NCBI GenBank assembly: GCA_039621445.1
Contig: CP154954.1
Coordinates: 28,113,037 to 28,177,036, forward strand
Source of the DNA: Euglena gracilis
Taxonomy: Eukaryota
Length of the DNA: 64,000 bases
Reading direction: 5' to 3'
Of this stretch, positions 15,301 through 61,856 are shown piece after piece. The notes below the pieces were generated by a model that was given only the letters and a program-made list of their open reading frames with translations, was not told where the DNA came from and made no database searches. Both the position numbers and the translations under genes were made by a program. The number at the start of each line of letters is the position of its first letter. The first letter of the stretch is position 1.

Positions 15301-18300
15301 TTGCGATTTCTGGAGCTTGGAGGACAAAATCAGTCAGCAATGGGGAGTGTTCGATTTTCGTTGTTGACATCCCTCATAATTCACCCCGAAACCCTCCAAA
15401 CCCCCCCAGGGTGTCATTTATGGGGATTTTGAAGGGAAAATCCAAAAGAACTGTCATCGGCAGCGAGCAAAATTTCATATTGCAGAGCGGTGGGTGTCAT
15501 TTTTGATTTATAGAGTGGCACCTACCGTATTTGTCACCCCTGGGGGCACTGCCAGACCCCCTTTGTTGATGTCAACGCACCCTAATTGGACAATTAGAGT
15601 GCGTTGCCAGTATTCCACCTAATTGGCACTTTTCTGACACTCCTTTCGCACTCCAAAAAAAAAGTTCTTCGGCTGGTCCTTGGGGATTTAGTACCCCCTA
15701 CCCTCACCCCCCCTAATTGGCCTCCAGGACAACACTGGCAAAAATTTGGCCAGGCTCCAACGACTTCCCCAAAAAATGACTATTGAAACAAATGTCCATC
15801 AAAAAGTGGAGAAAAAAATTCATGAAGCACCCAACCGTGCACAAAAAAAAACAAATTTTGTGCTGGGGGTGATAGCAGGGGGTGGGATCCTTGAGTCTCC
15901 TTGCTTGTCCCCCCCCGGCTAATTGGCTGATGGGGGGTCTGAGGGAACCTGGTCATTATAAGTCATAAAGAAGGTGTGAAATTGCCACCCTTCGGCACAC
16001 AGGCAATATTCCCCCTGGCAGCAGGGAGAAGCACCAACACCCCCCCCCTTTATTTGAGCACACCCACGGGTCAAAAGACCCCCCAAATGCTCAAACGAGG
16101 GGGGGTCGGAAATTCGGCTTTGAGAGAGGACAAAAAAATTTTGGCGCCTTTGGCGCCTAAAATTTTTTTCCCCCAGACCCAAATGTTCAATTAAGGGGGG
16201 GGTCAAATAAAGGGGGGGGATGGTATTGACCATTTTTCACCAACTCCCCCAGGGGGAGTCATTTTCTACTCTGCTAAAGACCAGCCAAAACCATTTTCCT
16301 GGAAAAATAGCAATTCAGCACCTGCCTGGGAGGTGGGTTGGTCACTTTGGGATCCAGTGGAATTGACCACACATGTGAAGCACGACCAAAAAAAACTTTC
16401 TCTGACAGAAATGCCTTAAAATTCACTTTAAATTCTTGGCCAAAATGGGTAAAAATCCCTTAAAATGCCAATGCCTTAAAATTTCTGAGGGGAAATTTTT
16501 CCTCCAACCCAGCAAAAATGAAAGTGCAAAAATCTCAGCAAAATAACAGGCCAAATCCAGGGGAGGAAAAGCGATTTCTGGCATCGTTGGAACATTGTCT
16601 AGTCAAAACTGAAAGAAAAAAAATGAGCTTTTTGCCCTCTTTTTTTTGGATTTGGACCTTGTGAAAATCAAAACGTTGGTTCGATGCATGCCTGGATGGC
16701 CCTTGTACCACCCTGAAAAGTGGCGCACCAAAAAGCCTCAAAGTGCTGTTACAAAGCCTTAAAAAAGCTTAAACAACCTTAAATTTTTGAAAAAATTCTG
16801 CTTTGAAAAAGGCCCACCTCCATGGTGATTGGCATTTGCCAATCAATTGGTGCAGCCTTGGAAGAAATCCACAACATTGGCTGCTGTCACTTGGCACCAA
16901 ATATGACGACTGGCTAATAGTGATCGAAGGCGGTGGCAAATCTGGCTCGGCATCAAGAGAAGAATGAATGTGCATCTCTTTCTTGATGTACGTTCATATT
17001 CCCTCCCTTTAATCCCCTCTAATTCTTCGACAATTATCGTTAATTCGACAATTTCGGGGGCAGTAGTGTGTCGGTTCATGGGCAAAACCTGCGGCCTACG
17101 GGACAACACTCAACAAAGAGCCCAAAGAGCATCACAACTTCAATTACCACCGGGTTTTATGCAGCCGGCGGTTTTCAGTACGTACCCAGGGGAAACCAGG
17201 TGGTCCAGTTCGGTCCAAAAGACCCCCCTCCCTAGGGTTGTGCCAATTAATCGTTTCGAGCAGGCGAATAAATCGGGGTGTCTCAGACGACTAACGATCA
17301 ATTGGTCCCTTCTGAGTTTTGCTGTTGAAATCTGCATAAGAAATTGAAATGCGGAACTCAAACCATTTCTTTGCGCGCCCTCTAACGAATTTTTTCCTTG
17401 TTCTGGGCCAGGCACTAGCAAATTAGGAACCGTGTCAGCTTAATAAATCGCACAGCATTTCACTGGCACCTTCGCTGACTCATGGCAACTTTAACAACTG
17501 TGTCAAGGTGTAAGTAGAGTATTATCTGACTGGTTACTGTACGAAATTGCGTGTTTGTAGCAAATATCGCGCCCATCGTGGTTGACATCCATAATGAACG
17601 ATTGCCCTGGGCCGAACGATTCGGAATCGGCGATGACGAACAATTAGTCGATTAATCGATTGATCGAATCTACCCCAGCCTGGCCGGGCCGGCCCGGGAT
17701 GGGCCGCCACCGGGCCGCTAATCCACTGGCCTGGGCCGTGCCGCCGGGCCGTTGGGCCGGGCTAGGCCGCCGGCTGCCGATCACCTCAAACATCTGCCAC
17801 ACGCCTCAAACATCAGCTGCAGCATGGCACCATCACACATGTAAAGAGCTCGGTACTACACAAAACCTAATCAAACAGGGGGGGGGGTATTCAGTCACCC
17901 CAAAAACGTCCCCCCCCCTGTGACCTGGACCACCAACAACAATGAATTAGTAACAAGGTAATTACCATGCCCTGGACCCTTTACGGCCCAATGGGAACAG
18001 TATGGGGGCAGCTGGACCTAGGTCCCACTCAAGCTATTCCCATACCCGAACCTGGCACAGCCCAAAAGGGGGCACCTTTGGAATTTTTTAGGATGTTCAC
18101 AAAAAATGGTCAATTTCAAGCACATTTGCCAAAAAGCGATTTTTGAAAACGTCCAAATAATGTCGATTTGACCATTTTTTCGGGGTTTCTTCACAAAGCA
18201 CGCTATGACAGTGAGCTATTCCAGTCAGGCTTTTGCTTAAGGACCCCGGGGGGGGGTACTGGCTAGCCAATCGGCTAGACACTGGAAAAAATGGACTAGC

Positions 18301-20641
18301 TAGACCCCCCTCCCCCCCCCCGGGGGGGGGGGTCCGGGGGTCCCCCCAACTGGAAAAAAATTTTCCTCCGGCACTGCGCGCCGAGGTGGAAATCAGGTTT
18401 TTAATAGGTTTTTGGGCTGTTTGTTCAAAAATTCCCAAAAATCCTATGGTAAATGTCATATTATTCGGTTTTTCTCGACAAAAATTAGAAAATCTGTCGC
18501 GAACAGTTCACTCAAACCTGATGTTTTTTTTCGGGGTCAGAAAAATCCAAAAATAGACCCCCACCCAATTCAATTCATAAGACCGTAATCTATCATTTTG
18601 GGTTTTTTGACTGGTTGTACGTCTTTACTCAAGCTATTTACGCCTGATAGTCGCACTCCCCGGGCACCCAGCCCATTTTTTTAATGTATGCTAGTCAAAA
18701 AAATGGTCAATTTCAAGCACAGTCCCAAGTCGATTTTTGAAAACCCAAATAATTTTGAATTTCTTTTCTTCACAAAGCACATGGCAAGCTCAGTCCACCC
18801 CCGGGTGGGGGGGTACCTGGACAATCCTCAACAGAAGGAGAAAAGGTATAGCTGGAGTCGGGGGGGGGGGCCTGTCCCCCCTCACTGGAATAAATTTTTT
18901 TCCTTCGTGCACCAAAAAAATTTGGTTTTTTTCAAGCTTAATTGTTTTTTGAAAACGTCCAAAATTTTTTTCCATTTTTTTTTGTTCCACAAAATGAGCT
19001 AGTCCAGCCCTTTTTAGGACTCCGGCTCCTTACTGCCCCAATCCCTAAAGCATGGAATCCCCCCCCCCCCAACGGTCGGGGTGTCCCCCCACTGGAATTT
19101 TTCTGTTGGAATCGTTTTTTATTTTTGGCTGATTTTGTTCCAAAAATTCCCAAAAATGGCCAAAGACGGGCTAGCGGCCAAATTTGGACTAGCTGCAGTC
19201 CAGCCCTTTCCCCGGGGGGGGGGGGGACTGCAATCCCTTAAGCAGAAGCCTGATTCCCGTCCCCCCTATGGGAATAGCTTGGGAGGGGGGGCATGGAAAT
19301 TGTTTGGTCCCCCCAACGGTCAATTAAATGAGCACAAATCCCATCAATGTCAGTGAATCGCGATTTTTGCACGCATCTCTATTGGATGTTGATTGATTAT
19401 AACCTGCGCATGCCCCCATTGACCAACAGGGGTACAAATCCCCGAAAAGGATGTGAAGTAGACTGGGTAGTCGGCCAACTACGCAATTGGTCGGCTGACT
19501 AGCCCCTGTTGGCAGCTAGTTGAGCGGCAAGATGCGGTGGGGGGGGGGGGTAATCGGCTGACTACCATGCCCCACCCATATAACACCCCCCTCAGGAGCC
19601 AAAATCCAAGGGGGGGTCTTATATGGGGGGGGTCTTATATGGTGGGGTCGCTGAGCTCTTATCCCTGACCAAGATCCTTTGGCCTCCCGGAAAAACTGTT
19701 TTTGAGCCGAAAATTAGCGTTTTTCGACCCGCCAGCGCCCCGTTTTGGGCCGCCAACCCATTGCCTTTGGGTCAAAACCCGGTCAAAAAAGTCGAAAACA
19801 ATCGATTTTTTTTTTTGCCCGAAACGATGTTTTTTTAGCCTCCCGGACCCGGAAAAACCGTTTTTGAGCCGAAAATGAGCGTTTTCCGACCCGCCAGCGC
19901 CCTGTTTTGGGCCGCCAACCCATTGCCTTTGGGTCAAAACTGGGTAAAAAAAGTCGAAAAATTTTTTCCCCGAAACGATGTTTTTGGGCCTCCCGGACCC
20001 GGAAAATTTGTTTTTGAGCCGAAAATGAGCATTTTTTCGACCCGCCAGCCCCCCGTTTTGGGCTGCCAACCCATTGCCTTTGGGTGATTTTCGGGTCAAA
20101 AAGTCGAAAAAAATCTAAAAAAAATTTTGCTCGAAACGATGTTTTTTGGCTTCCCGGACCCAGAAAAAGTGTTATTTGAGTCAAAAACGACTGTTTTTTG
20201 ACCCCCTGGCCTCCGGTTTCGGGCACAAAACCCTTGCATTTCAGTCAAAAGAGATCCATGGAGTGGGCCGGTGTGGTGGAAATTAGCAACCAGAGGCTTG
20301 ACCCTGGCGTGCCTGATGGGAAAGGGCCGGCGGTCTACCTGACCTGTCACAATTAAACCATTGCGGCTTCGGCCGAGCAGTGACACTAAGGACAAGCAAC
20401 CCCTATCAAACACGCCATCGCCAAGCATCAGGAGCTGAGGCAAGGGATGGAGGACTTCGAGTGCCACGAACCCGAGGGCTAATGCCCCCTGGCGGTAGCT
20501 CCACAGGCGAGAAATCGCTTCGTCCAGAAAATCTGTCCTCAGTCGTTGGAAAAATTCTCTCTTGCCCAACGCTGCAGATTGCAAAAAATCAGAGACATGA
20601 TACCAAACATCATTCGGAAGACAAGAAGCTTCACTCATCAT
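368..20641 (-). CDS. F-box/leucine-rich-repeat (RNI-like LRR) protein, multi-exon; 3' end runs off the left edge of the window
   Basis: Exon 20641-20568 (MMSEASCLPNDVWYHVSDFLQSAAL) joins exon 16948-~16860 (SQICHRLRSLLASRHIW) to form an F-box motif. LRR exons: ~14290-14230 (LLGDGGVAALSNL), 13424-13311, 12398-~12320, ~10950-10850 (LALDLSDNAVGDRGATALAGL), ~9154-9070, 8944-8898, 7612-7547, 7457-7402, 6031-5893, 5686-5533, 5092-5021, 2348-2281, 406-~368. The joins give in-frame LxLDLxxNxIGxxGAxALAxL repeats. Exons within 9150-12320 and 13430-16860 are only partly resolved. Confidence 0.85.
1349..1581. mobile_element. hAT-type MITE
   Basis: CAGAC...GCCTG ends; TSD CTACCGAA/CTACCGAC. Confidence 0.7.
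1821..2124. mobile_element. Palindromic (foldback) MITE with GG..CC ends, possibly Merlin-type
   Basis: Near-perfect ~300-bp palindrome; perfect TSD ATGTTGCC (1813-1820, 2125-2132). Confidence 0.8.
4580..4862. mobile_element. Palindromic MITE containing TTAGGG-like motifs
   Basis: Foldback structure; perfect TSD TTCCGAAT (4572-4579, 4863-4870). Confidence 0.75.
8945..9069 (-). other. Nonconventional intron consisting of a MITE (8950-9066) plus one 8-bp TSD equivalent
   Basis: Element CAGGCTTTTT...AAAAACGGCCTG flanked by the perfect direct repeat GTCGAGGC (8942-8949, 9067-9074). Removal gives in-frame GGC CTC|GAC CTC TCC CAC AAC (GL|DLSHN). Confidence 0.85.
13625..14014. mobile_element. MITE, possibly Tc1/mariner-type
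   Basis: TIR CAGTCCGGACAAAAATG / CATTTTTGTCCGGACTG; flanks CA and TA. Confidence 0.6.
18226..19252. mobile_element. hAT-type MITE inside intron 1 of the F-box gene
   Basis: CAGGCTTTTGCTTAAGG / CCTTAAGCAGAAGCCTG; TSD ATTCCAGT/ATTCCCGT. Confidence 0.75.
19680..20215. repeat. Tandem repeat with ~155-160-bp unit (~3.5 copies); related inverted copies at ~3165-3480
   Basis: Recurring GCCTCCCGGACCCGGAAAA...GAGCCGAAAATGAGCG...CCCATTGCCTTTGGGT. Confidence 0.75.
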
Positions 20642-24306: not shown

Positions 24307-24737
24307 CAGGGTTCGATATAAGGACAGGTGGGGGGGTGTTCCGGACCCCCCCCTGCGGGCCAGGAGGGGGGGGGGTGGGGGGGGACACCCCCCCCCACCT
24401 AAACAGGTGCGCGGTCAGGGTGGCTGAATTTCGGCCCGGCGCAAAGCGCCGGGCCGAAAATTTTTGACCCCCAAAACGACCAAAAGTGCCATTTTGGGCA
24501 CTTTTTGGGCAAAAATGTGCCAAAAATGCAAAAAATTTTCGGCGCAAAGCGCCGGAGGAAAAAATTGACCCTTTTTGGGGGGGGGTCCCGGGAACCCCCC
24601 CCGAGGGTCGGTCCAGACCCCCCTGGCAGGTGGGGGGGGGGTGGTCCGGAACCCCCCCCTGCGGGCCAGGAGGGGGGGGGGTGGGGGGGACACCCCCCCC
24701 ACCTAAACCATGTACGCCCTCCTTATATCAAACCCTG
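24307..24737. mobile_element. hAT-type MITE (same family as 48318-49009)
   Basis: CAGGGTTCGATATAAGG / CCTTATATCAAACCCTG; perfect TSD CTGATACC. Confidence 0.85.
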
Positions 24738-42668: not shown

Positions 42669-45400
42669 TTTTTTTTTTTAAGGGGCTCTAGCCGGCTTGC
42701 TGGGTCGCGCGTGCACTCTCTTCTCACCTTGTGGAGTCCAGGGGGGGCGGGCTACCCTTTGCGTGTGTGTTGCTTTTGCCGGCTCCACTCCCCTTTGTCG
42801 CCTCGTTGGGCGGATGCCTTTCGCCTGGCGTGTAGGCTCTGGTTTTTTTTTGGCGGCTTCGTTTTTTTTTTGTGGTGTGGGGGGGGGGCCGCCTTTTTGG
42901 GGGGGGGTGTTTCCGTGGGGAACCTCCGCGCTTTGTGGGTTGTGGCCGTCTTGGTCTTGGTCTTGCTCGCTTTTGGTGTGGTCTGCGGTGGGGGTTGGGG
43001 ACTTACCATGGGTGGAGGGCCTCCTCCACGCGGTCCCTGGCGGAAAGCTGCCGCGCCACGTGGCGCATGAGTGTCACCGATAGTGCTTCATGCATTTCTT
43101 GCAGGGCCCTTGTCTTTGGCCATCCCCGCATGTCTGCGGTGGCCCTTTTGGTGACCTCAAACAGCACCGCCTTGGCAGAGGTCCAGGCCTCCCCATGTGC
43201 TCAGGCCGAAGGGTGAGAAGCCCCACCCCTTCGCCTGACACGGGGGGCCATCCGTCTGCACTTTCCTGGTTTCCACCTGGTTGCAATGCCTGCGGGCATT
43301 GTCCACCACCAGTGGGTGCTCTCCCAGCCCCGCGGGGTGGCTGCAGACGAAATCAACTGCCACGTGTTGCCCCCGTGACCAGTTGATGAGGAGAATGTCG
43401 GCTGGTCTTTTGTTCGCCAAACACTCTGCCTCCTTCTCCACCGCAATGTTGTACCGGGCACACATCGCCGCAAAAGCATCTCGGAATGCATTGTGCCGTT
43501 GGGTGTTTCCATTCTGCTCGCAGCAGACGAAGTGATCCCCGAAGGGATCAATGGACCCCCGACACAGTGGGCACCCCGGCAGCGTGACCCCTGAAGGGAG
43601 GATGGGCAGGCCAAGCCACCACCGTAGTAGCAGCCGGTATTGGGTGTCCGAGAAAGCTGTGTGCTGTGCCTTGCTGGGCAAAGTCCGCAGCCATCCCGTT
43701 GCCACCGGTTGCAGCAACAGCTTGGCCCCAACATGGATCCCGTGGCCAGCTGGCTCGCAGGCACCACCCCACTCTCCTCCGCAGCACCAGAACACGCCAC
43801 CCAACGGTGGTGGGCGGAGAAAGTTGCGGAAATGCAGAGCCAGCGAGTCGACGCGGTCGGCTCTGCCAGGGACCGGGTGAGACGGGCTTGCCAAAAGGGA
43901 ACCGTTGTAGCGTGTCTTGCATGTCCGGGGATGGGGTTGCCAACACCGAGGCTGGCACCCCCACTGCTTGGCTGCCGTGCATCCCCAGATTCAGCAAGGC
44001 CGCCATCCGTGCCGCGGGTTGCAACACTTCGGGGTCCGAGATTCCGAGTCCTCCTTGGCGGATGGGCAGGGAGACTTGATCCCATGAACTCTCGGTGATT
44101 CCCAGTCCGAGGAGATCTTGTACGGCTTCCTGCAGCCGTGCCCTGAGAATGAGCGGGGAGTCCCGTGCGTTTTCTCTCTCTGTTGATCGGAGGAGGTGGA
44201 CCACCCGACATCCGTCAAGACAGTGCCGCACTTGCCCCTCTGGGTATCCCCTGAGCCGTTCCAGGAGCAAGGTCGCCCTGTCCACGGTCTCTTCCCATAC
44301 GGCTTGGCATTGTGGTGCTCTTGGCGTGTCCTCTTGTGCTGTGCGCTGCTCCCGCGGGGCATCAATTGGGACGCCCAGGGTCGTGATGCCCCTCGGTCCT
44401 CCAAAGGGAATCACGGGCACTTGTCGTCCCAAGTGGTCTTCTGCCAAACCGTCTGGGTAATGTGGCCCGGCTTGATTGACCGTTTGCATCCCAGGTCCCC
44501 AAAATTTGCACTTGGCCAAATTGAGGTGGAGGCCTACTCGCTCCAGGACCGTGCTGAGGTCATGGAGGCGGGCCAACACCACTGCTGGTTTCCCCACGAT
44601 GTGGCCGTCGTCGAGGTACCAAGACTCCCATGCCAAGTCCCGGGCAAAGCATTGGTCAAGGGCGTAGTCCAAGCCCAGTGCAAAGCCCAAGGGCCCGCAT
44701 GCGTCGCCTTGATGCACTCCGATCTTGCTTGTACACAGGAAGCGCCCTTGGCAGAACAGCGGACTTGGTCCACTGTAGCAAAAGCGCAGCCAGTTGTACG
44801 CCGTGGGTACCTTGGCCAAGCATCCCCGGAGCATTGCATCCCTGCTGATGGAGTTGAAGGCATTGCGCATGTCCACCTGCAACACCACGTAGTCGTTGTC
44901 CCCTTGGAGGTGGCTTGACTGGACGTAGCGTTGCAGGCCCATGCCCACCATCTCGGCGGCGTTGCGCACTCCCACCCCGCACTGCCGCGGTTGTAGGGCT
45001 GCCAACTCCATCGTCACCGCTTCAGAATGGACAAGGCACTTGCCCACCACTCGCCGGAGGGTGTCCCCGACGGCAATGGGCCGCACCCCCCAATCCTTCT
45101 TGCGGAGCGGGATGAGCGTGGAGGCGCATAGCACTTCTCGCACGCTCTCCGGGAATGATGTGGTCAGGGCCGTCGCAGCAAGCTTGCCGAGGGCTTGGAC
45201 CAGGGGCCCCCCCGGCCCCAGCTTTCGGCAACACTCAATGAGGTGGATTGGACGCAGCCCAGATGGTCCGCCTGCGGACCCCGGGGGGAAGGAGACCACG
45301 GCTGCCCAGGCCCGCTTGGACCACTGCTCGTTGCTCTCCTCTTCGTCCATGCCCTCGTCCACCAGGCGGCAGGCAATCGAGGTGGGCAAATCCCCTGCCA
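42669..45400 (-). mobile_element. 5'-truncated CRE-clade (CRE/SLACS/Cnl1-like) non-LTR retrotransposon: RT, CCHC and restriction-like endonuclease
   Basis: RT motifs GVRPIAVGDTLRR, QVDMRNAFNSISR, GVHQGDACGP, WYLDDGHI; C-terminal CPLC..DPFGDHFVCC...RHNAFRD and RPADIL...VAVDF. Poly-A tail (T run from 42669) and 11-bp TSD GAGCCAGAGCA at 42658-42668 and 45401-45411. Frameshifts near 43750-43900 and 43170. Confidence 0.92.
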
Positions 45401-45444
45401 GAGCCAGAGCAAGAAATTAAGAAAGAACTTTGGTAATAAAAAAA

Positions 45445-46715: not shown

Positions 46716-49700
46716 ATGGAACTCGCAATCCCTGAAGCATCTACAACTATTTGTGTCGGAAACCTTCCCGACTATATGAGCAGGAATCACTCTCCAGTGA
46801 GATTTCTTGCTCTTTTTTTGATTGGTTCCTGTTGTAAACTGCTCGTGAATTCCGCCTTATGTTCAAATTCGCAAACGGTGTCCAACGGTGCATCATCAAT
46901 CACACCAAGGCTGGACACCAGGTTGGTTATGCAAGGTTTGGAACGGCACAAGAAGCACAAGCCGCCATTGAATGGCTTGCGCAGGGCTGCTGAAAATGAT
47001 ATGAAGTTTTATGTGAAATTTTCAACCTGACAGCTTCCCTGATGCTCACGGATACCCGATTGACGAGGACTTCCCAAACACTTTGAAAGTTTTCATGTCT
47101 TCAACTCAATTGCGCGATGCCCTTCCTGGCACCCGACCAAAGCGCCCGCTGGACAATGGTTTTGGCGCACCTGCAGCGAAATTCCCACGTTTGGGGGGAG
47201 TGCACAGAATTTGACAACTGTTCAAATGTGCTTGTGAGAGGCCCAGGTTTCTCTGAGCACTTTTTCTGATCTGCAAAGTGTGAGAACCATGAGGAAGTCA
47301 AATCAACCTGGAACCTCACTAATGGAAATGAACCAGTTGTGATGTTGTTTGATTTTGGTTTTTGCTTGTTCAAAAAATCGGAAGAAACAAAGAAAATTTT
47401 GTTTTTGGCAGGGACTCTATTCTTTGGACAACTTGTCTTTTCAAAAACTGACCAAATGCAGAAGCCCACACCAACCAGAACTTATGGAGAGAATGCGAAT
47501 CGCCAAAACCTGCACGTTGGGGGTTGCTGGATACTGTCTGCCTCGCCTCAGAAGACCACTTTTTAGAGCACTTTTGGTGATTCAAGTCCTTGGTTGACTC
47601 AAAGGTACTTGTTCGCTACTCGACCGCCAGTTTATTGTGAGGTTATTTGAAGGGTAGGGTTAGGTGCGCACATGGCCATGTTGCACAACATGTCCATGTG
47701 CGCACCTAACCCTACTCCTTCAATAACCTTAAATATTCCAATAAGACTTTGAAAAATTTCGGTGGCGGTCGGGTAGCGAACAAGTACTGACTCAACGGAT
47801 TCAAGGTCGTTGGGTTCTTGATTACCAGGACCTTTTTGGCGGTTTTTTCCTTGGAGGAATTTTTGTGTGAAGCGGACGCAACAACAAGCAAGGTAAACCG
47901 TCATTGTCAAAAAAAAGGACTTCGGTGCCCTGAGGTGCTTGGGCCACCTCTTCAACCAAGCCACCTCGTTTCACCTCATGTCAAATTCTGAAATGCCTTT
48001 TGCTGCAGCTCCTGGGTTCATTGGTGGCCGTGGTTTTGGCAAAGGTGCTGGAAAAGGCCGTGGGAAAGGTGGTGCACAGGCTGAATTTCAAGGCAATGCC
48101 GACCGGGGGTTCCTGCCAGGCTGTATTTTAGTCGGGTGCCGACCCCACCCCGGGGGGGGGGGGCAGGCACTCCAAGGCCCCCCTGATCCGACCGTAGGGC
48201 ACATGGCCAAAAGTGCCCTGGCACAACCCCGGCGCCGGGGAGCCAAAAATGGCCTATCCTCAAAGGAATGTGCCTGGGCACAGACCGAAATCCGACCCCC
48301 CCGGGGGGGGTAGTGCCCAGGATTTGATATAAGGAGGGCGTACATGGTTTAGGTGGGGGGGTGTCCCCCACCCCCCACCCCTCCTGGCCCGCAGGGGGGG
48401 CCGGACCACCCCACCTGCCAGGGGGGTCCGGACCGACCCTGGGGGGGGGGCACCCGGGACCCCTCCCCAAAAGGGTCATTTTTTCCTCCGGCACTTTGCG
48501 TCGAAAATTTTTGCATTTTTGGCAAATTTTTGGGTACTTATCTGTTATCGCACGACATACCCCCCCCCTTCGGTTATCGCACGACACCCTTTTTTGGGGT
48601 TATTTAAAGGAATAGGGTTAGGTGCGCACATGCTACGTTGCGCTACATGGCCACGTTGCGCTACATGGCCATGTAGCGCAACATGGCCATGTAGCGCAAC
48701 GTGGCCATGTAGCGCAACATTGCATGTACGCACCTAACCCTACTCCTTCAAATAACCCTATAAAACCTAAAAATAAGGCGTCGTGCAATAACCGAAAGGG
48801 GGGGGTATGTCGTGCGATAACAGATAAGTACCAATTTTTGCCCAAAGAGTGCCCAAAATGGCACTTTTGGTCGTTTTGGGGGGTCAAAAATTTTCGGTCA
48901 CCCAGACCGAGCCACTGTTTAGGTGGGGGGGTGTCCCCCCCACCCCCCCCCCCTCCGGCCCCGGGGGGGTCCGGACCCCCCCCCCCCCACCGTCCTTATA
49001 TCAACCCTGGTAGTGCCTGCCTGAGCAGGCACTCTGGACCAGGGTTGGTAAAAAAACAGCATTTTGGGCACTTTTTGGCCCACGACCTGGCAGGCACTGC
49101 CCCCCCCCCCACCTGCCTAAATCACTCCCAAACCCCCTCCCCCAATTTCAATTTCAGCCTGGTGGTGTAGCCTCCAGCCCCTCATCCGTTTATGTTGGAG
49201 GTGTACCCCATGACTGGGATGAGCCCAGGGAAGTGCCAAGTGTTTCCAGAGCACAGACGCAGCATACTTCCAACACACCCCACCATCCGTTACTTGGGGG
49301 GTCAGGCCCAGGCAATTGCTTAAGCACAGACCAACCAACCCCCCCCCCCCCGGGGGGGGGGGACTGGTTTTTTCAAAGTGACTGACTGGTTTTGGGCCCG
49401 GACCCCCTCCCCCCCGGGGGGGGGGGTCGGCCAGGAGTGGGCAAAAGTGGCTTGAGTGACCCCGGCGCCAAAGGCGCCGGAAAAATTTTTTGGGCCTTAA
49501 ATGGCCTAAAGTGACTGGAAAGTGGCCGTTTTTCTGAGTGGCCGACCCCCCCCCCCCCGGGTGACTGGCTGGTTTTTTGAAAATGAGTGACTGACTGGTT
49601 TTTAAAAAAGTGGAGTGACCCCCCCCTCCCCCCCCCCGGTCGGTAAGCAATTGTATGGTCAGGCCGATCAAGATCTTCTCATGCAAAAGCAAAAATCTTC

Positions 49701-52700
49701 GGTCCCAACCTGCCTTTTGAGCCAAGCCCAATTGCCCGGAGAAACCAACCCACCCAAAAGGGGGGGTCCGCACCCCTCCAGTCCCGGAGAGTGACACCCC
49801 CGCTTAAGAGAGAGTGACACCCCATCCAGGCCCTGGGGGGGGGGGTGGGTGCTGGGGTTTTCAGTGTGACTGACTGGTTTTTGGCCTGGACCCCTCCCCC
49901 GGGGGGGGGTTGGCAAAAAAACCCACAAAACTGACCCAGCCGGAAAATTTTTTTGCAGTTTTTTCATGTTTTGGGCCAAGTTTCCCTTGGATTCCAGAGT
50001 GACCGACCCCCCCCCCCCCCGGGGGGTCGTGGCTGACTAGCTTCCCGAAAAAAGTGACTGAAGGATGGCCAAAACGGGCACCCTAACAAAATCCCTTTGT
50101 GTGTGCACCCAGATGAACTTACCCTCACCCCCCCCCCCTATTTGGCCCCTCCCCTAATTGGCTTATTGGGGTCCCGTTGGATGGTCCATTAGCCAATTAG
50201 GGGGGGGGGGTCAGGCTTATTGGCCATTGGCCGGGGTAACCCCCCCCCTAATTGTCCCCCCCCCCCCTAATTGGGGGTCCGAAGGAGCCCGGCCATTAGC
50301 CAAATAGAGGGGGGGGGTGAGGGTAATGAAGGTGTCTGGTAGGTAAAATAGCCCCTCTGTATGTTCCACAGGGTTTGGCCAAGGGTTTTTATGCTTCTGA
50401 AATGGAAAACCATGGAGGTCGTTTCCACCGACCATATGGTCCGGCCGACCATGGTCGGCCCGACCATGGTCGGCCCGACCTATTGTCAAAAGTCCTTTGA
50501 AAAGGGGGGGGGTAATGCGGTTCATTGGCTACCACCTCCCCCCCCCTAATTGACCCCCCCCCCCAAATGACCAAATGCCCCGGGGAAATTTTTTTCTACA
50601 CACAAATTGTGGCTGAGCCCAGATTTCAGCCTGAAAACGTGTTCAGCCAGGGGGCCCCCCGAAGGGAATTAGGTTAAGAAGTCAGACCTAAAATGGGGCC
50701 TGATTTTGGCCCTAATTTGAATCAAATTTAGGCCTGGCAACCCTGATAACCCTAAAATTTCCGCCTTGGAAAATATAAAAAAATTCAGATGGCGGCCCCA
50801 TGCCGAACAAGTACCACTGACCCCCCTTAGGACCGACTTTCCGGGTTTCTGGGACCCCCCAAATGGTCAAATTTTCCTTTCCGGCGCCTTGCACCAACTT
50901 TTTTTGCATTTTTGGCAACTTTGCCAAAACAGAATTCCCCAAATAATACTCCCAGAATATTTTGGTCCACCAAAGTCCCCGAAGGGGGAAGGGGGGTATT
51001 TGGCGAAAATTTTCGTATTTGTATGTTTGGTTGTGAAATGCAAATGGCAAAACTATCCTTAAACCCCCCCATAGTCCCCCTGGCTTTATATGTAAAATTT
51101 TTTTCGTTGTTTTGGATGATAATATTCATCAAGTTTCTACTTGGCCTCCCGGGGGGGGGGGGCAAGTAGAATGTCCAGGGGGCTCCGCAAAAATTTTGGG
51201 TGTTTGGAGTTCGGCCCAACTTTAGGCCTTACTCAAAGAGGGTTAGGTGTAAAAGTTAGGCCGAACTCCTAACCCAAACCCTACTCCATCAATAACGCAA
51301 AAATGTTTTTGACCCCCCTGGCTGGGGCAAGTAGAATCTTGTTGCTGATTATTTATCAAAGGCATTTACAAGGTTTGGCAATTTGATTAATGTCGCAATG
51401 GTGCTCCTTGTGATATTTGGGAATTTCCAAATTGTTTCATTATAAAACAATGTCAACGGAAGGCTGGCAGGTGTGATGGACACATGGCACTGGACACCCA
51501 TTTCCAACAACCAAGCGAGATTCAAAGTGGCTCTTCTCTTCAATTGACTGCCCTCCAGTCCCTGTTTGAAGGATTTGGAACAATCACCAAAGTGCAGCTC
51601 ACTCGTGGAAGCAACCCAGTTGGGAATACCCAGGGATGTTTGCAGTGGAGGCTGTTTCTCATCGATTCCATTGATAGGGAAAAGGTAATGACCCATTCTG
51701 TAACAACTGAGTGTTATACGCTTGCACTGTATCAGAGACCTCGATGATGATTGAGGTTTTTCAAGTTGTTGGTTCACAATCATCACAAATGAAAGATGTG
51801 GTTGACTGAAAATGTCGTTGTGATATTCCAAGGAGGAACCTGCTGCAGCAATGCAAAAGTGTGCTATCCAGTGAAGGCTTTTCTAAACTCAGAAGGCCCC
51901 CCCCCCCGGCGGGGTCACAGACCAGAAATTTTTTTAAGTTTCATGACCCGGTGGATGGGTCCCGGCCGAACCCCCTGGGGGGGGGGCAGGGCGAGTGGGA
52001 ACCATGCCCCCCCGAGCTATTCCCATGGGGCGGGCGGGATTAGGTCACTGTCATAGCACTTTTTATGAAGAAAGTCCAAAAAGTGCAGTCCAAAAAAGCG
52101 CAGTCCAAAATTGACGTTTTTTTTGACGTTTTCAAAAAGCACTTTTTGTCAAAAGTGCTCAATATTGACCATTTGGAATAGCTCGGGGGAGTATGGTGCC
52201 CCGCTGGAGGCAGGGTTTTCTTCTATTCGCGCCGATGTTTTTTTCAGACCCCAAAATTGACCACGAAGGTGCCCCCCCCCCCCCCCCGGAAGCCGAGTGT
52301 TTTGGTCCAGGCCCCCCCCCCCCCCTGCTGGGTCCTAAAAACCCCTCTGACACAGATGGGCTGGAGGCGTTTCGGTTTTCAGTGCGAAGTGCCGAAGAGA
52401 AATGCAAAAGAAACCTCATTTCCACCTCGGCTCACAGCGCCGGAGGAAATTTTTCCCCAGTCTGGGGGTCCCCGGGGGTCTAACTAGTCCATTTTTTCCA
52501 GTGTCCAGCAAAATGGCTAGCCACTGGATCCGCTGAGTTCCTCAAGCAATGGCCTGTTCACAACAGGCGACATTTCCATGATGGTTTACTGGCCAAAAAC
52601 CACAAAACCTGCTGCTTGCTTTACCTGCCGAATTTGTCACCGTCAGTTGATTTTTGTTTAGAATCAGGCACCTGGACACTGAAGCCTGCATCTCTGATGC

Positions 52701-52827
52701 CATTGCATTCATCCACTTCACAACCCCAGAGGAGGCCCAAGGCGCCATCCAGAGCATGAACAACTACCCGCTGGATGAGACCCGTCACCTCGTGGTGCGG
52801 GGCAACACCAGCAGCCCACGAATCTAG
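46716..52827 (+). CDS. Two-RRM RNA-binding protein, paralog 1 (RRM1 RBPMS/MEC-8-like, Gly/Arg/Lys-rich linker), 7 exons
   Basis: Exons 46716-46777, 46837-46978, 47047-47201, 47995-48073, 49167-49222, 51546-51627, 52702-52827. Product: MELAIPEASTTICVGNLPDYITAREFRLMFKFANGVQRCIINHTKAGHQVGYARFGTAQEAQAAIEWLHGYPIDEDFPNTLKVF...GGRGFGKGAGKGRGKGG...SVYVGGVPHDWDETALQSLFEGFGTITKVQLTRGSNPVGNIAFIHFTTPEEAQGAIQSMNNYPLDETRHLVVR. RNP2/RNP1 motifs occur twice. Pyrimidine tract plus AG at 46702-46703. Confidence 0.9.
47604..47788. mobile_element. Palindromic GG-ended MITE
   Basis: GGTACTTGTTCGCTAC / GTAGCGAACAAGTACT; TSD GACTCAAA/GACTCAAC. Confidence 0.75.
48318..49009. mobile_element. hAT-type MITE nested in an intron
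   Basis: CAGGATTTGATATAAGG / CCTTATATCAACCCTG; perfect TSD GTAGTGCC. Confidence 0.85.
48533..48832. mobile_element. Palindromic GG..CC MITE nested in 48318-49009
   Basis: TIR GGTACTTATCTGTTATCGCACGAC; perfect TSD AATTTTTG. Confidence 0.85.
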
Positions 52828-54761
52828 GCACCAGCTTGTTTTTGGCTTGCTTCTCTTGGATGGTGGAGGGATCATAAAGAAACTCAACTTGTGGATATCT
52901 GTTTGCCCAAAAGACAATTTTTTTCAGCCCAGAAACATGTCCGCCCACATAAAAGATTTCACTGCATCCTAGCAGACCCCCTTTGAGGGAGGGGGCTGGA
53001 CTGCAACCGGCAAAAATTGGCCAGTGGAGGTTTCTTGTGAACCCCTGGACAGCCAGTGAAAAAAAACACCATTTGTTAAACCGAAACCTTCCTTGAGGGT
53101 CAGGGGTCATGGGGGATATGTGCCAAAAAATCGCGAAAATGCCAAAAGTAGCCTTTTAAAAAATTTTCGGCGCCTTCAGCACCGAAAAGAAACCCCCCCT
53201 CCCTCTTATACCCCCCCCCCCACTTATAACCCCCCCCCCACTTATAAACCCCCCTCGGGCCGACCAACCAAACCGGGACTTATAACCCCCCCCCCCCCGG
53301 GAAGAAAAACGAAAGTACAATTTTTTTCGGCCGCAAACCACCAAAAGTTGATTTTTTAGCAGTTTTTTTTGAGACCAACCATCAAATTTGGCAAAAATTG
53401 CCAATTTGGGGGGGTTTCGGGGTCATTTTTGGGGGTCGGATTTTCACCAACAATTCCGGGACTTAACTCCCCCCCCCCTTCGGCCGACCAACCAAACCGG
53501 AACTCCATTAAACTTTCGGGGGTTTATCAGTGGGAGGGGAGGTTTATATCCCACCCCCCTTGAGGACCTGGGGGGGGGGGGCTCAGTGGGGGCTCAGCCA
53601 GACCCGCCTGCCCTGCCTACCCCCCGGGGGGGTCCAAGACTAAAAAAAACCCCTGCTTCCGGCACTTTGCACCAGGCGCACAATTTCAGATATGTGCCCC
53701 CCCAGGCACCCTGAAAAAGTATTTTTGGTCCACTTTGAAAGCTTTACCTGCAAGCCGGCATAGGTCACTGTTTGGGAGGCAAACCCAGAAAAAGGCATGG
53801 ATATTTGAACTTTGAGGAGACTCCAAATCTGAAGGAAATATACGACATTTTGGCCTTTTTGGCAGGTTGGACCAACCTCGGGGAAAAGTGAGTGGCCCCC
53901 CGGACCCCCTCCGGGGCGCCCCCCAAGGGGGTGGGTGGAGGGGACCCCTCCCCCCCACCGGAAGCCGGAAGCAGGGCACCTCCCAAGGTACTTTGGAAAA
54001 TGGATGGACAGTTCCCTTCCTCTGTTCCCTCTCGTATTTTAAAAAGAAGCCTGCTCCTCTCCTCTGCATTGTAAAGCACTCAAATTGAGACGCCATAGCA
54101 CAAAGCCAAGAATGATGATCAAGGTATTTCACATATGCAAGCGACGGAGGTTGTATTCTGCCAAAGATACCTCTGAAACACAATCGAGACCGTGATGTTA
54201 CTTTTGTTTTCAGTTTCCTTCCTCGTCTGGGAAGCCCAAAGAACGTAAAAACCATGTGGGATTTGACGCATGTTGATGGCAAAAGGGTCACTCTCAAACC
54301 CATTTGATTTCCTCTGCATGATGTCTTTTTCTCGCGGAAAGCATTGTTCAAATTTCATCAATGGGAGTAGGAAGTGAAAACATTATCTCCAGCCAAAAAG
54401 AAAGCGAAGCTTTCGTTGGGGGACAGTGGTTTTTTGGTTTAAAACGCTGTTGTCAAGTTCTCCATCCATTCATTTTTTTGAGATGTATCTTTTCAATGGC
54501 TGCGGTCACCACTTGCCGCAACTGGTGCTGCACGCCATCCCGAACCTTTCTGAACTCCCTCTTTCCTCCGTTCGTTTGCTGTGCGTTTTAGGCCACAATT
54601 ATCGCCTGATGCCTGAAGAAGGCCTCACTGTTCGGACGCACCATCACTGATGAAGGCGACGGCTCACAGGCACCACCGTCGATCCTCTCACCCCTTTGTT
54701 TTGTGCAGTTCGCATTCCTTCGCGTGAGGTCCAGGGATGAACAGGTTTCCCATGGTTGGCA

Positions 54762-56096: not shown

Positions 56097-59000
56097 ATGG
56101 CATTGGTTGAAGCATCGACCACCATCTGCGTCGGAAACCTCCCAGACCACATATCCAATGGCCCCCCATTTGTGAAAGGAAACCTTTTGCTTTCCTTCAG
56201 GCTGATGTGACAGTTGGGTGACCATTGCCCGCAACACCACGTGAATTCCGCTTGATGTTCAAATTTGCTGCCGGAGTGCAACGATGCATCATCAATCATA
56301 TGCAGGGGACCACAGCAATTCTTCTGATGGGGGCTTTTGGCACCTTGGCTGGAGACATTCACATCATTTGAGCCGAAGTGGACCCCATGCCTGGCGGGAT
56401 CCAGCCAGCCAGCAGCCCCCAGACCCCTCCCCCCCCCCATCGACGAGTTATCTTTTTCCAGCCGCCCAAAGGGCGTGTGGACGGTGACGGATTTTTGGCT
56501 TTCGGGGGTGCAAAATTGGCCAAAATGGGCAAATAACGGGTCGGCTTTGGGCTGGCCAGGCAAATTTTGGATCGAAAAGTTGATTTTTTGCACAATTGGC
56601 AGTTTTTTGGGCATTTTTGGCTTTTCCCAGGTTCGACCACAGGTTGGCCCAGTTCCAGCCAGGGACTCCCCCCAACCTCCCCATATTGCCCTACAGCCTT
56701 TTTCCAGCCAGCCCAAATTTTTCAGCCTCTGAGCTGGACCCCCCGGGGGTGGGTCACCAAGCGACGGGGGTCGTTTGGATTTTCACCTCCAGATTTTGGC
56801 TCAAGAATGCTAACCAAGCTGGATTGGGCTTTTGGGGGACAAGCTGGACCCTTCCACAACCCAGGATTGGGGGGCCCAGCGATTTTTCTTAGGCGGTTTT
56901 CTCAGGGGTGCTCAGGCCTTTTAATTTGGAAGACCCCCCCCCCCCCCCCGGAACTCCCTGGGAGGTTTCGCCATTGCCAAAAATTTTGGGTGGAAATGCC
57001 CTCAGATGGCCCGTTTTGGGGGGGGGGGTTGCGTTTCGGCATCCCTGCACACAGCATCCACGGGGCGCTTGCTGAGTCCCCTGGCACCACCAAGTCAGGG
57101 CACCAGGTCGGTTATGCAAGGTTTGGCACCCCGCAAGAGGCACAGGCAGCAATTGAGTGGCTCTGCCAGGGTCATCCTCACCTTCCAACCGACCAAGCAC
57201 CGGTTCAAAGCCAGAGGCGCATGTTTGGTTCAGCCCACGACGTCCTCTCTCTCAATTCAAGAAAACCCCCTCAAGAGTGATGTCTCACCAGGTTTTCCTG
57301 TTCATCCCTATTTTTCTCAGGCCATTTTCCAGCCAATCCAGCCCCTTTAATTTAGTTTGAATGTGAGTTTCTGCATCGTTTGGATGGGACGGAATTCCTC
57401 CAAGGTTTCGGGCGGCAGTGCGAGCATGCCCCTGCCTCTCACGGCTACCCTCTCGATGAGGATTTCCCCCAAACGCTGAAGGTCTTCATGTCCTCCACGC
57501 AGCTGCGGGATGCTCTGCCGGGCACTGGGATGAAGCGGCCCCTTGGGCAGGCTTCTTTTAAACCCCTCATCTTCTTCAGTCTTTTCGGGGCAGGATTATT
57601 CATGTCTGTCGGGTTTTGCAGACCCGGGGGGGGGGGGCTGCTGCAGCTGGGCCAAAATCAGCCGCAGCAGCACCCCTCCATCTGGCCCTGACCACTCCTT
57701 AGTGTGTGTGTCGGCAAAAAGAATTTTGTGTATCCTGTGTATCGCCAAAAAAATTTTTGTGTTCCCCTGTGTATCACCATAAAAATTTTTGTGTTCCCCT
57801 GTGTATCGCCAAAAGAATTGTATATTCCTGTGTATCCCCATTTTTCTGTTATTTGTAATTGTCCTCCCTCCGCAGCCATAAAGCAAATGTGCTTGTCTTC
57901 TTTCACTTCCTCTCGGGAGCGGGCGGCGTTTGCAAAGCCCCGGATACAATTGCCGCACCCATACCCCAAATCACCTGCTTTTTTGTTTTGTTTTTCTATT
58001 TTGTTTTCTTGGGGTTTTTTTCAAAACAGCTGCAAAAATCGACGAAACGGACAAAAGGAAAAATCAACACGTGCTAGAGGCAGGCTCGCCGAATTGCCTC
58101 TTGGCCGCACGAGGGAGTAGCACCCCTCCCCCAATCACAGCAGCAGGGTGAGATTCCCTGCCACGCTTGGGGTTGAGCCGGGGCCAATGTCCACAGAATT
58201 TTGCGGCAATGGTGTCAACAAATCAACAAATCACAATTTTTGTGAGTTTTTTTTGTGTATTCCGAAATCGTATTTGTGTATCCACAAAAATTTTTGTGTA
58301 TCCTGTGTAGCGCCAAAAAAAATTTGTGTTCCCTTGTGTATCACCACAAAAAATTTTTTGTTCCCCTGTGTATCGCCAAAAGAAAATTTGTGTATTCCTG
58401 TGCATCTTGGATACACACTAAGGAGTGGTCTGATCTGGCCTCACCGCCGGGCGAATCCCAACACCTGCCCTTTTGGGTCACCCCAACAGCCGGGAGGGCC
58501 GAAGGGGGCTTCATCTTTCTTCCCCCTGTCAGGCACCAGGACCCAACACTAACCCTGCGGGGAGTTCGCTGGCGGCAGTAAAATTTTTTTCAATGACCAA
58601 AAATTGGTCAAATATTTTTGTTCCATTTTGGCCACGACAGAAAATTTTTGGGAAATGTCCGGAGATTTCCCTTGTTTTGTATTGACCGCTAAATTTTTTT
58701 TCTTTTTGCACCATTTTTTTGGCCATTTTTTTTACCACCAATCCCCCCTGGTATTGGAAGGTGCCCGGTGTGAGAATGCTGAACGGGTGGCATTGTCCTC
58801 GAAGAAAATCAGAGTGGTTCACCTAAATCGTTCTGTGTGATTCTGTTTTGCATTGCCACGTGCTTGAAAAAAGCCTTCCGCGGACAATGGATTCGGTGGC
58901 CCGGCGTTCAAGATTCCCCGTGGCGGTGCCTTTGGTGGCTTTGGGGGCGGCTTTGCCTACGGGGCCCCGGCGGGCTTCCCCGGCGGCCGCGGGCTGGGCA

Positions 59001-59769
59001 AGGGCCGGGGCCGGGGCAAGGGTGGTGCAGTGGCGAGCCCCACGTCTGTCTACGTCGGCGGGGTGCCCCATGATTGGGATGAGAGCAGGACGGTCGCCCC
59101 ATTCCCATTCCGGGGGGGGGGGTGACTCTGAGGAATTAGTCCACGTGTCCTGCAGCGCTGTCGATTTGCCGTTGTTTCCCCCATCCGCCAGCTCAGCAGG
59201 AGATTTTCAAAACTGTCGATATCTGGCTAGTTTTTTGATATCCGCATCTTTTTCACACCCGTGGGCCCTGATCCGGCCGGCACATTGGAATAGTTATCCC
59301 GGGGATCCCAGTGGGAACCCCCAATCGGTTTCCTGTTTTGGGGCCAAATCACGGTTTTCTATAGGCCCAAGTGAGGGGCCGTCTTCCGTCCAAATGATGA
59401 GCCCTGCGAAGGTGCCCAGTTGGTCCCCGGTTCCCATTTCGCCCATCACAATTGGCGGCTGCCGTCCTGTCCCCGACTGCTCTGCAGTCTCTCTTTGAGG
59501 GGTTCGGCACCATCTCCAAGGTGCAGCTGACCCGAGGCTCCAGTCAGGTTGGGCGTTTGCTGTGCTCTTTTGGTCGGTTCGGCCCGCCGATGGTGCCCGT
59601 CAGGCCTCGCCGACCCCAACCTGGTTCCAACCCGGTGGGCAATATTGCCTTCATTCACTTCACCTCCCCGGAGGAGGCCCAAGGGGCCATCCAGAGCATG
59701 AACAACTACCCCTTGGACGAGACCCGGCACCTTGTGGTTCGGGCAAACACCAGCGCGAAGGGCCTTTAG
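56097..59769 (+). CDS. Two-RRM RNA-binding protein, paralog 2, 7 exons
   Basis: Exons 56097-56152, 56233-56299, 57089-57163, 57440-57544, 58883-59082, 59475-59541, 59629-59769 (TAG). RRM domains are nearly identical in protein sequence to paralog 1. Acceptor-like TCTCACAG ends at 56081. Confidence 0.9.
57693..58427. mobile_element. TIR element with subterminal tandem repeats, inside intron 4 of paralog 2
   Basis: CACTCCTTAGTGTG / CACACTAAGGAGTG; repeated TGTGTATCGCCAAAA motifs; TSD unclear. Confidence 0.6.
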
Positions 59770-59914
59770 GCATGCACCCAATCCGTGTCATTTGTTTGGC
59801 CACAGCTGGGCGAATGGTTGCATGGAGCAATTTGGTAATTCTCAAAGCTACAGGGAAGTTGTTATCTTTTTTAAGTGGCCATTTTGAGACAGTACGGCTG
59901 ACAGGTCATGTTGG

Positions 59915-60408
59915 CAGGGAATTTCTTAAGCCGGAGGGTACCCTACCCCCCGGGGGGGGTCCAGCCAGCCAGCAGCTCAAATCCAGCCAGCAGCCCAAAT
60001 TTGGGCTGGGAGCCCCCCCCCCCCCCCGGGGTCGAGTGAAATAAAGTCGGGTCCAGCCCGGCCGGAGGCCGGGCCAGCCGGCCGAAGGCCGGCCCAGCCG
60101 GCCGCAGGCCGGCCAGCCAACTGGGCTGTCCAGCTCACTTATCCCTGCATTTTTCCCCCTCATCACAGCCCCCCCATCACAGCCCCCCAGCCTTGATCTA
60201 GCTCCACCCATCAAAATGTCGAAAATGTGTTAGAAATTTTTGTTTTTCTTCGACCCAGCCCAGCCCAGCCCGCTCCAGCCCCGGACCCCCCCCTCCCCCC
60301 CCCCCCCCCCCCGGGGGGGGTCCAGCCAGCAGCTCAAATCCAGCCAGCAGCCTTTTTGCCAGCCGGAGGCTGGACCCCCCCCCCGGGGGGTCCTTAAGAA
60401 ATTCCCTG
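59915..60408. mobile_element. hAT-type MITE
   Basis: CAGGGAATTTCTTAAG / CTTAAGAAATTCCCTG; perfect TSD CATGTTGG. Confidence 0.85.
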
Positions 60409-61580: not shown

Positions 61581-61856
61581 CAGGGATTTTTTTAAGTTTG
61601 GACCCCCGGGGGGGGAGGGGGAGGGGTAGGGTGGGTGGGTCCGGCCGAGCCCCCCCGGGGGGGGGTCCCCCCCTGGAGGGGGGTGGGATATATTTTTTTG
61701 GCGCTGCAGGCGCCGAAAAAATTCTATTTTTAGCACTTTTCGCGATTTTTCGGCCATTTTTTTTTGTGGGTCCTCCGGGACCCCCTCCCCCCCCCCCCGG
61801 GGTGGGGTGGGTGGGGGGGCCCCCGCTCCCCCCCCCGGTCTTAAAAAAAACCCCTG
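61581..61856. mobile_element. hAT-type MITE
   Basis: CAGGGATTTTTTTAAG / CTTAAAAAAAACCCCTG; perfect TSD TGCCGGGC. Confidence 0.85.

Follow-up and report, generated by a model that had tools for sequence, protein, structure and literature searches.

A candidate transposon-born nonconventional intron with nested insertions in an RRM-protein gene of Euglena gracilis

In a 64,000-nt stretch of Euglena gracilis DNA (assembly GCA_039621445.1, contig CP154954.1, positions 28,113,037 to 28,177,036 of the forward strand; hereafter the window, to which all coordinates refer), one of two paralogous genes for a protein with two RRM domains carries a 1093-nt nonconventional intron, intron C (48074-49166, + strand), whose body is a transposon-like element. 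We consider it probable, at roughly 80%, that this intron was born from a transposon that inserted into paralog 1, and that it is spliced out without a scar together with one copy of its target-site duplication (TSD). Here, we describe the element and the RNA evidence for its removal, and then weigh the explanations that compete with this one.

The outermost element, L1, spans 48077-49161 (1085 nt including its inserts; once these are subtracted, ~138 nt is left, from 48077-48116 and about 49064-49161), and its termini start with CAGG and end with CCTG. On direct reading, its terminal inverted repeats (TIRs) match at 11 of 12 positions: the 5' TIR (48077-48088, +) is CAGGCTGAATTT, and the 3' TIR (49150-49161, +) has the reverse complement CAGGCTGAAATT. 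The element is flanked by an 8-bp TSD, identical at seven of eight positions, with GTGGTGCA at 48069-48076 and GTGGTGTA at 49162-49169. These outer boundaries, the TIRs and the one-mismatch duplication had been proposed in a first-pass annotation made from the letters alone, and all of its coordinates for them are correct. The same annotation stated that paralog 2 lacks the intron, and the comparison bears this out. Paralog 2 spans about 57089-59772, its coding alignment with paralog 1 is gapless across the insertion site, and the empty target site, again GTGGTGCA, lies uninterrupted at 59022-59029 (+) inside one continuous exon. The intronic 5' copy of the duplication retains the GCA of paralog 2, which suggests that the exonic copy changed by C>T (Ala to Val) after L1 inserted. 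Judging from its form, L1 itself was probably once mobile, and from the length of its TSD we take it to be hAT-like.

To follow the intron at the RNA level, we used the raw reads of two RNA-seq runs, each from a different study (X21 and X24), and a contig set that is only guessed to be RNA (X15), with one DNA contig set (X13) for comparison, over the alignment region 46800-52900. The joint 48067>49161 skips 1093 nt, and seven letters at it fit either side. It is carried by 400 X21 reads (175+225, from 136 start places), 54 X24 reads (34 start places), one X15 contig and none of the X13 DNA contigs (0). As 1093 = 1085 + 8, what is removed is L1 plus exactly one copy of the duplication. The X24 run is stranded, and nearly all of its first mates lie on the minus strand, which fits a + transcript under the usual convention. 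Depth in X21, per strand class, is 0.09-0.62 in the intron bins of 48432-48839 vs about 330-350 in exon-rich bins. Even this residual depth comes from other copies, because all reads at position 48322 (8/8 in X21 and 8/8 in X24) carry the variant of those copies. Unspliced RNA of the intron C locus is essentially absent.

The joint lies between an upstream exon (47994-48073, +; entered through the joint 47200>47994, with a 3' end that the reads allow at 48067-48074), which encodes the RGG-rich linker of the RRM protein, and a downstream exon (49167-49222, +), which encodes the start of the second RRM. When the six RNA-defined exons are joined, they form one open frame ending in a stop; single exons match RRM_1, with scores over the Pfam cut-off for the final exon in both paralogs. 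The reads allow eight registers, from 48068-49160 to 48075-49167, and none of these is GT/GC-AG (GG..CT, GT..TG, TG..GG, GG..GT, GT..TG, TG..GG, GC..GT and CA..TG). A spliceosomal introner of the dinoflagellate type, with GT/GC-AG borders, was therefore rejected: the RNA joint differs, and GT-AG is impossible in any register. Three in-frame GT/GC-AG candidates picked out by eye (48069-49170, 48072-49170 and 48080-49157) are absent among the joints listed.

The published splicing code of Euglena singles out one of the eight registers. This code, 5'-N3CDG...CH'GN5-6|R, was derived from knock-in genetics (Nomura et al. 2025, PMC12501133). In the available part of that paper, splicing requires CAG and CTG, with an invariant 5' spacer of 3 nt and a 3' spacer of 5 (or 6) nt; the first exon base is preferably a purine, and the middle of the intron is unconstrained in sequence and length. 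Register 48074-49166 reads GCA-CAG...CTG-GTGGT, so that both spacers fit the code, with the CAG inside the 5' TIR and the CTG inside the 3' TIR, and the first downstream exon base, G at 49167, is a purine. The N5 rule divides the 3' TSD copy into 5 intronic nt and, after them, the 3-nt exonic codon GTA. Precise removal from mRNA is seen in X21 and X24 reads, in the X15 contig and in the frame that stays open after joining. The junction 48073|49167 named by the first-pass annotation is both among the registers that the reads allow and the one that the code picks; its reading of the exon after removal as GGT GGT|GTA agrees with the loose end after 48074, which continues TAGCC... in the alignments.

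A diplonemid study, in its available part, argues for an adaptable spliceosome (PMC12621601), and a modified spliceosome acting on noncanonical sites, rather than a separate end-pairing pathway, would be the corresponding explanation for intron C. We regard this as unlikely, as no register offers GT/GC-AG, the knock-in genetics found a dependence on CAG/CTG and on fixed spacers (PMC12501133), and full-length circular products have been reported for nonconventional introns (review PMC11282704, available part). At this locus, no back-junction occurs among the joints listed, which come from cDNA and size-fractionated RNA-seq libraries.

Intron C is a nest of elements. The middle element, L3 (48318-49009), has a 17-nt TIR that bears an indel, and it is flanked by GTAGTGCC at 48310-48317 and 49010-49017, an 8/8 duplication. 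Its empty site is represented by DNA contigs that match to 48317 and then jump to the sequence after 49017 (loose end 48317); such contigs are copies of the surrounding repeat without L3. A second copy of the L3 family lies at 24307-24737 (-); it lacks the innermost element and is flanked by a separate perfect 8-bp duplication, which reads CTGATACC on the + strand. That innermost element, L4 (48533-48832), is a near-perfect palindrome of 300 nt whose arms are inverted repeats. It is flanked by AATTTTTG at 48525-48532 and 48833-48840, again 8/8, and its termini fall outside the CAG...CTG code. The L3-family copy at 24307-24737 has a single copy of the palindrome target, and other DNA contigs skip L4 through the joints 48532>48842/48848. 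The MITE (miniature inverted-repeat transposable element) and the palindrome that the first-pass annotation placed here, each with a perfect TSD, are thus real, with 8/8 flanks and independent empty sites.

The first-pass annotation counted three nested levels, and L1, L3 and L4 all stand; the count itself is probably four, owing to a further terminus at 48117. This terminus opens a layer missed earlier, L2 (48117-49063), which belongs to a high-copy family and is related to a 117-bp element elsewhere in the window (8950-9066). The 5' terminus of L2 is clear and begins CAGGCTGT; the 3' terminus, at about 49063, is decayed, with ATT in place of the expected CTG, and no target duplication is recognisable at L2. 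Likeness to other copies is lost just before 48116/48117 in 28 DNA contigs and 12 RNA reads, and the two ends of the 117-bp element align to the sequence that starts at 48117 and to that which stops near 49063. A 7-bp pairing of the 48117 terminus with the outer 3' end is likewise conceivable and would give a frameshifted product; no joint that uses this terminus with the outer 3' end is among the joints listed.

The layers bear on how the intron grew. It had been proposed that they record intron birth followed by growth; birth is largely right, while the order is not established. The duplication of L2 is unrecognisable while the outer one is still 7/8, so that L2 may already have been aboard L1 when that element entered the gene, or it may have been damaged later. 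For L3 and L4, both with perfect duplications, growth after birth is possible.

The nest also raises the possibility of stepwise, twintron-like removal, in which L3 with its spacers (48315-49014) would be excised first and the outer intron afterward. L3 fits the code N3-CAG...CTG-N5|G by itself, as GCC-CAG...CTG-GTAGT|G, and among the CAG...CTG pairs tested its ends pair most strongly (-33.4 kcal/mol, z = -5.1). Because it fits the code and its end pairing is much stronger than that of the outer pair, L3 is a plausible independent splicing substrate. That removal actually proceeds in this order nonetheless strikes us as improbable. The RNA joint 48314>49015 is not among the 15 joints listed (276 more exist), pre-mRNA of the locus is essentially undetectable, and the joints 48300/48310>49009 also occur in DNA contigs, which points to other genomic copies as their source. 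The missing intermediate proves little in itself, because such intermediates have been found to be extremely rare in nonconventional splicing (PMC6221363, available part).

Altogether, the favored explanation of a transposon-born intron can be put as a sequence of steps. A miniature DNA transposon with CAGG...CCTG ends and 8-bp TSDs would have inserted at GTGGTGCA in the RGG-linker exon of paralog 1, after the paralogs of the two-RRM gene had separated. The host would excise it from the pre-mRNA through a nonconventional (non-GT-AG) pathway of the euglenid type: the terminal CAG and CTG of the element would pair, and cutting would occur 3 nt ahead of CAG and 5 nt beyond CTG. Because 3+5 = 8, such cuts would take out the element together with exactly one copy of the duplication and restore the original frame without a scar. 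L3 and L4 would be clean insertions, and L2 would be older than the arrival of L1, or damaged. The inner transposons would be tolerated because the pathway reads only the ends. End pairing may be the recognized signal. In the modeled fold of the whole intron, L4, L3 and the G/C runs form nested hairpins but the outer terminal stem is missing, and we do not count this fold as support.

The other introns of the gene provide a context for intron C. All five RNA-verified introns of paralog 1 are non-GT-AG, and four of them have CAG and CTG 3-5 nt inside the junctions. In the intron at 46978-47045, CAG lies 3-4 nt in and CTG 4-5 nt from the end (spacer sum 8); in intron B (47201-47993), both lie 3-4 nt from their ends (spacer sum 7); and in intron E (51627-52700), both lie 4 nt from their ends (spacer sum 8). 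Intron D (49223-51545), at 2323 nt, is RNA-verified as well and has N3-CAG at the start and CTT-N5 at the end (spacer sum 8 counting CTT), which is outside the published CH'G rule; its body has several high-copy repeats. Intron B has a perfect 12/12 TIR and a flanking repeat of only 3 nt; selection for splicing may preserve the TIRs even as the duplication decays. An L4-related palindromic element lies within intron B at about 47620-47790. Intron E has two joints one base apart, both of which skip 1074 nt: 51626>52701 (397 X21 reads) and 51627>52702 (232 reads). The resulting codons, AAC and AAT, are synonymous, and the pair would arise either if both cuts shift by one base or if position 52701 is T in one allele.

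Two neighboring introns, B and C, are absent from paralog 2. It has in turn a candidate intron at 57545-58882, predicted from sequence only and missing from paralog 1, which begins GGG-CAGGCTTC and ends GCCTT-CCGCG|G (CTT for CTG); its removal restores the coding sequence for KRPLDNG that paralog 1 has. Just upstream of paralog 1, a 622-codon open frame (43551-45416, -) matches RVT_1 (E = 7.8e-11) and is probably a retroelement.

If intron C were ancestral to both paralogs, then paralog 2 would have lost introns B and C precisely, for example by recombination with reverse-transcribed mRNA. The absence of two adjacent introns from one continuous exon is typical of such cDNA-mediated loss, and a reverse-transcriptase frame is nearby. 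Even so, we give this history a lower chance than either of the two splicing alternatives above. At L1, an 11/12 TIR sits right against a 7/8 direct repeat, which is what a recent insertion leaves, and duplications do decay here, given that intron B combines its 12/12 TIR with a repeat of 3 nt. Each paralog, moreover, has introns missing in the other, counting the predicted one in paralog 2, which fits ongoing gain.

L1 resembles other elements in the window. We searched the window for pairs of CAG and CTG separated by 40-6000 nt whose 12-nt termini are inverted repeats and which are bordered immediately outside by matching 8-mers, and we used the same search with the downstream 8-mer displaced as the control. 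With a TIR of at least 11/12 and at most one mismatch in the 8-mer, the window yielded five matches vs three summed over 20 displaced controls; with a TIR of at least 9/12 and the same limit on the 8-mer, it yielded eight vs 0-3 per displaced control. The matches have a common architecture, in which CAGG is followed by C or G, a stretch rich in T, and a run of C ahead of G. Six more CAGG...CCTG elements with 8-bp direct repeats (8/8 or 7/8) lie in the window at 1349-1581, 6037-7379, 8950-9066, 18226-19252, 59915-60408 and 61581-61856, with a T-rich subterminus and C-run/G-run cores in common. The duplication has a fixed length throughout: it matches at 7/8 positions for L1 and at 8/8 for both L3 and L4, and seven other CAG...CTG elements have 8/8 or 7/8. 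Virtual excision of the 8-bp-flanked elements is non-discriminating, as G+C-rich DNA has long open frames by chance. Weak LRR_6 matches occur in two long minus-strand frames, 5455-6150 (-) and 8747-9505 (-), one of which encloses the element 8950-9066.

Several observations count against a transposon origin of intron C or against its removal by end pairing. The first group concerns splicing. A short terminal stem of L1 can be drawn (9 contiguous pairs plus 2), but its local duplex of -17.6 kcal/mol is only modest relative to shuffles (z = -0.8), and the outer stem is missing from the global minimum free energy fold of the 1133-nt stretch. The exact register is inferred from the published code, as the reads support eight registers equally. 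Nor is that code strictly obeyed within the gene: intron E is unambiguously N4/N4, and its first exon base is C, a pyrimidine. Because of this 4+4 intron, the code is looser in this organism. The second group concerns copy number. Copies at different sites exist for L2, L3 and L4, whereas no second copy of L1 was found in the window by self-BLAST or by a terminus pattern scan. Its terminus has one other match in the window, at 2382, with one mismatch and unpaired, and 5/100 shuffles reach at least three matches. A metagenome scan with the 24-nt L1 terminus gave 0 matches, as did one with 30 nt taken from the high-copy middle element, so that the scanned metagenome collection is probably without this organism. 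DNA word depth is 2650 in the bin of the L1 right arm vs 46,000-343,000 for the inner elements, about 100-fold lower. Finally, the DNA comparison rests on a single run, and contigs can miss rare alleles.

The scarcity of L1 copies leaves some room for an origin of the 8-nt repeats in double-strand-break repair with filler DNA rather than in transposition. Other L1 copies were not found in the window or in the metagenome scan, and break repair has been invoked for the 8-nt repeats of a newly gained gapC intron in E. agilis (Milanowski 2016, PMC4770533, available part). Against this, TIRs and the architecture of CAGG, T-rich stretch and G/C runs are common to seven other window elements, each with 8-bp flanking repeats. 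A constant 8-bp repeat over unrelated sites is a signature of a transposase, and we find break repair very improbable. As for coding capacity, the window has 201 stop-to-stop frames with a minimum of 105 aa; among the 105 of them that were scanned, no Pfam match to a DNA transposase occurred and only RVT_1 and LRR_6 matched. An Rfam search of the whole window gave no match.

At the exon positions 46852, 46957, 47190, 52776 and 52779, about one third of the RNA reads have a second letter. These second letters are missing from the DNA contigs at four of the five positions, and at 52779 an X13 contig has the second letter; they could reflect alleles, polyploidy or a third near-identical copy. Such letters indicate that more than one near-identical copy or allele is expressed, but an origin of the spliced reads in an intron-less allele, paralog or retrocopy instead of splicing at this locus is hardly credible, as no X13 DNA contig has any of the five joined forms, yet there are intron-bearing contigs such as 46800-47440, and all five joints occur in both X21 and X24, four of them also in X15 contigs.

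Nonconventional introns make up 71.8% of the introns that the genome of E. agilis contains, and their origins "remain unclear" according to the available part of the 2025 PNAS paper (PMC12501133). Introns of this kind are already known, and their origin from MITEs is already a published hypothesis: it was proposed from inverted repeats (Milanowski et al. 2014, PMC3935182), and TSD-like repeats are mentioned in a 2024 review (PMC11282704, available part). What the locus adds is direct evidence for such an origin. It unites TIRs, a near-intact 8-bp duplication, an empty paralogous site, sister elements and scarless removal at the RNA level, and so supplies the type of evidence that was missing while the idea rested on inverted repeats and TSD-like repeats. 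In the literature, among full texts outside subscription papers and supplements, we found no assignment of such introns to transposon families and no link between the 3+5 spacers and an 8-bp TSD.

We see an even chance that the relation is a general one: the 3-nt and 5-nt spacers would exist because they sum to the 8-bp TSD of one CAGG...CCTG superfamily, nonconventional introns would be insertions of that superfamily, and the machinery would in effect be transposon excision at the RNA level. If so, each exonic insertion would be born as a ready-made intron, scarlessly removable in either orientation, and nested competent elements such as 48315-49014 would be independent substrates able to form their own circles. 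The sum 3+5 = 8 makes the question of origin testable genome-wide, and it offers a rationale for spacer lengths that were found genetically.

Among known systems, the spliceosomal and transposon-derived introns of other groups share parts of this organization. Introners of Micromonas, Polarella and others are likewise MITE-like, with TIRs and TSDs, and use the TSD so that excision restores the frame (PMC11282704, available part); however, they are spliceosomal, with GT/GC-AG borders of which one site is often co-opted from the TSD, whereas intron C is GT-AG in no register. The introns derived from transposable elements in Amoebophrya and Fritillaria also combine noncanonical borders with TIRs and TSDs (PMC11282704), but the TSDs of Amoebophrya are 3-5 nt long, its border logic is different, and the CAG/CTG geometry of 3+5 is not described for either group in the available part of that review. 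Diplonemid noncanonical introns have G/C-rich inverted ends and, in the available part of the study, not the CAG/CTG code (PMC12621601). With the chloroplast twintrons of Euglena and the fungal stwintrons, intron C shares an intron-competent element inside another; in those, removal of the inner intron comes first and rebuilds the outer signals, whereas the outer ends of intron C are intact and inner removal would be optional.

The closest counterparts are in Euglena. Intron 4 of gapC in E. agilis ACOI 323 (PMC4770533, available part) is likewise a young nonconventional intron that is missing in close relatives and has 8-nt direct repeats. It was attributed to break repair, with no repeat family identified, while the TIRs and common architecture found here point to transposition. 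More generally, intron C is like the nonconventional introns of E. agilis and E. gracilis (PMC12501133 and PMC3935182, the former in its available part): it is non-GT-AG, with CAG occupying +4..+6 and CTG occupying -8..-6, a purine for the first exon base, ends that may pair, short direct repeats along which the junction can slide, and precise removal. Unlike the introns described in those sources, intron C is legible as a discrete transposon, with a near-intact 8-bp TSD and an empty paralogous site.

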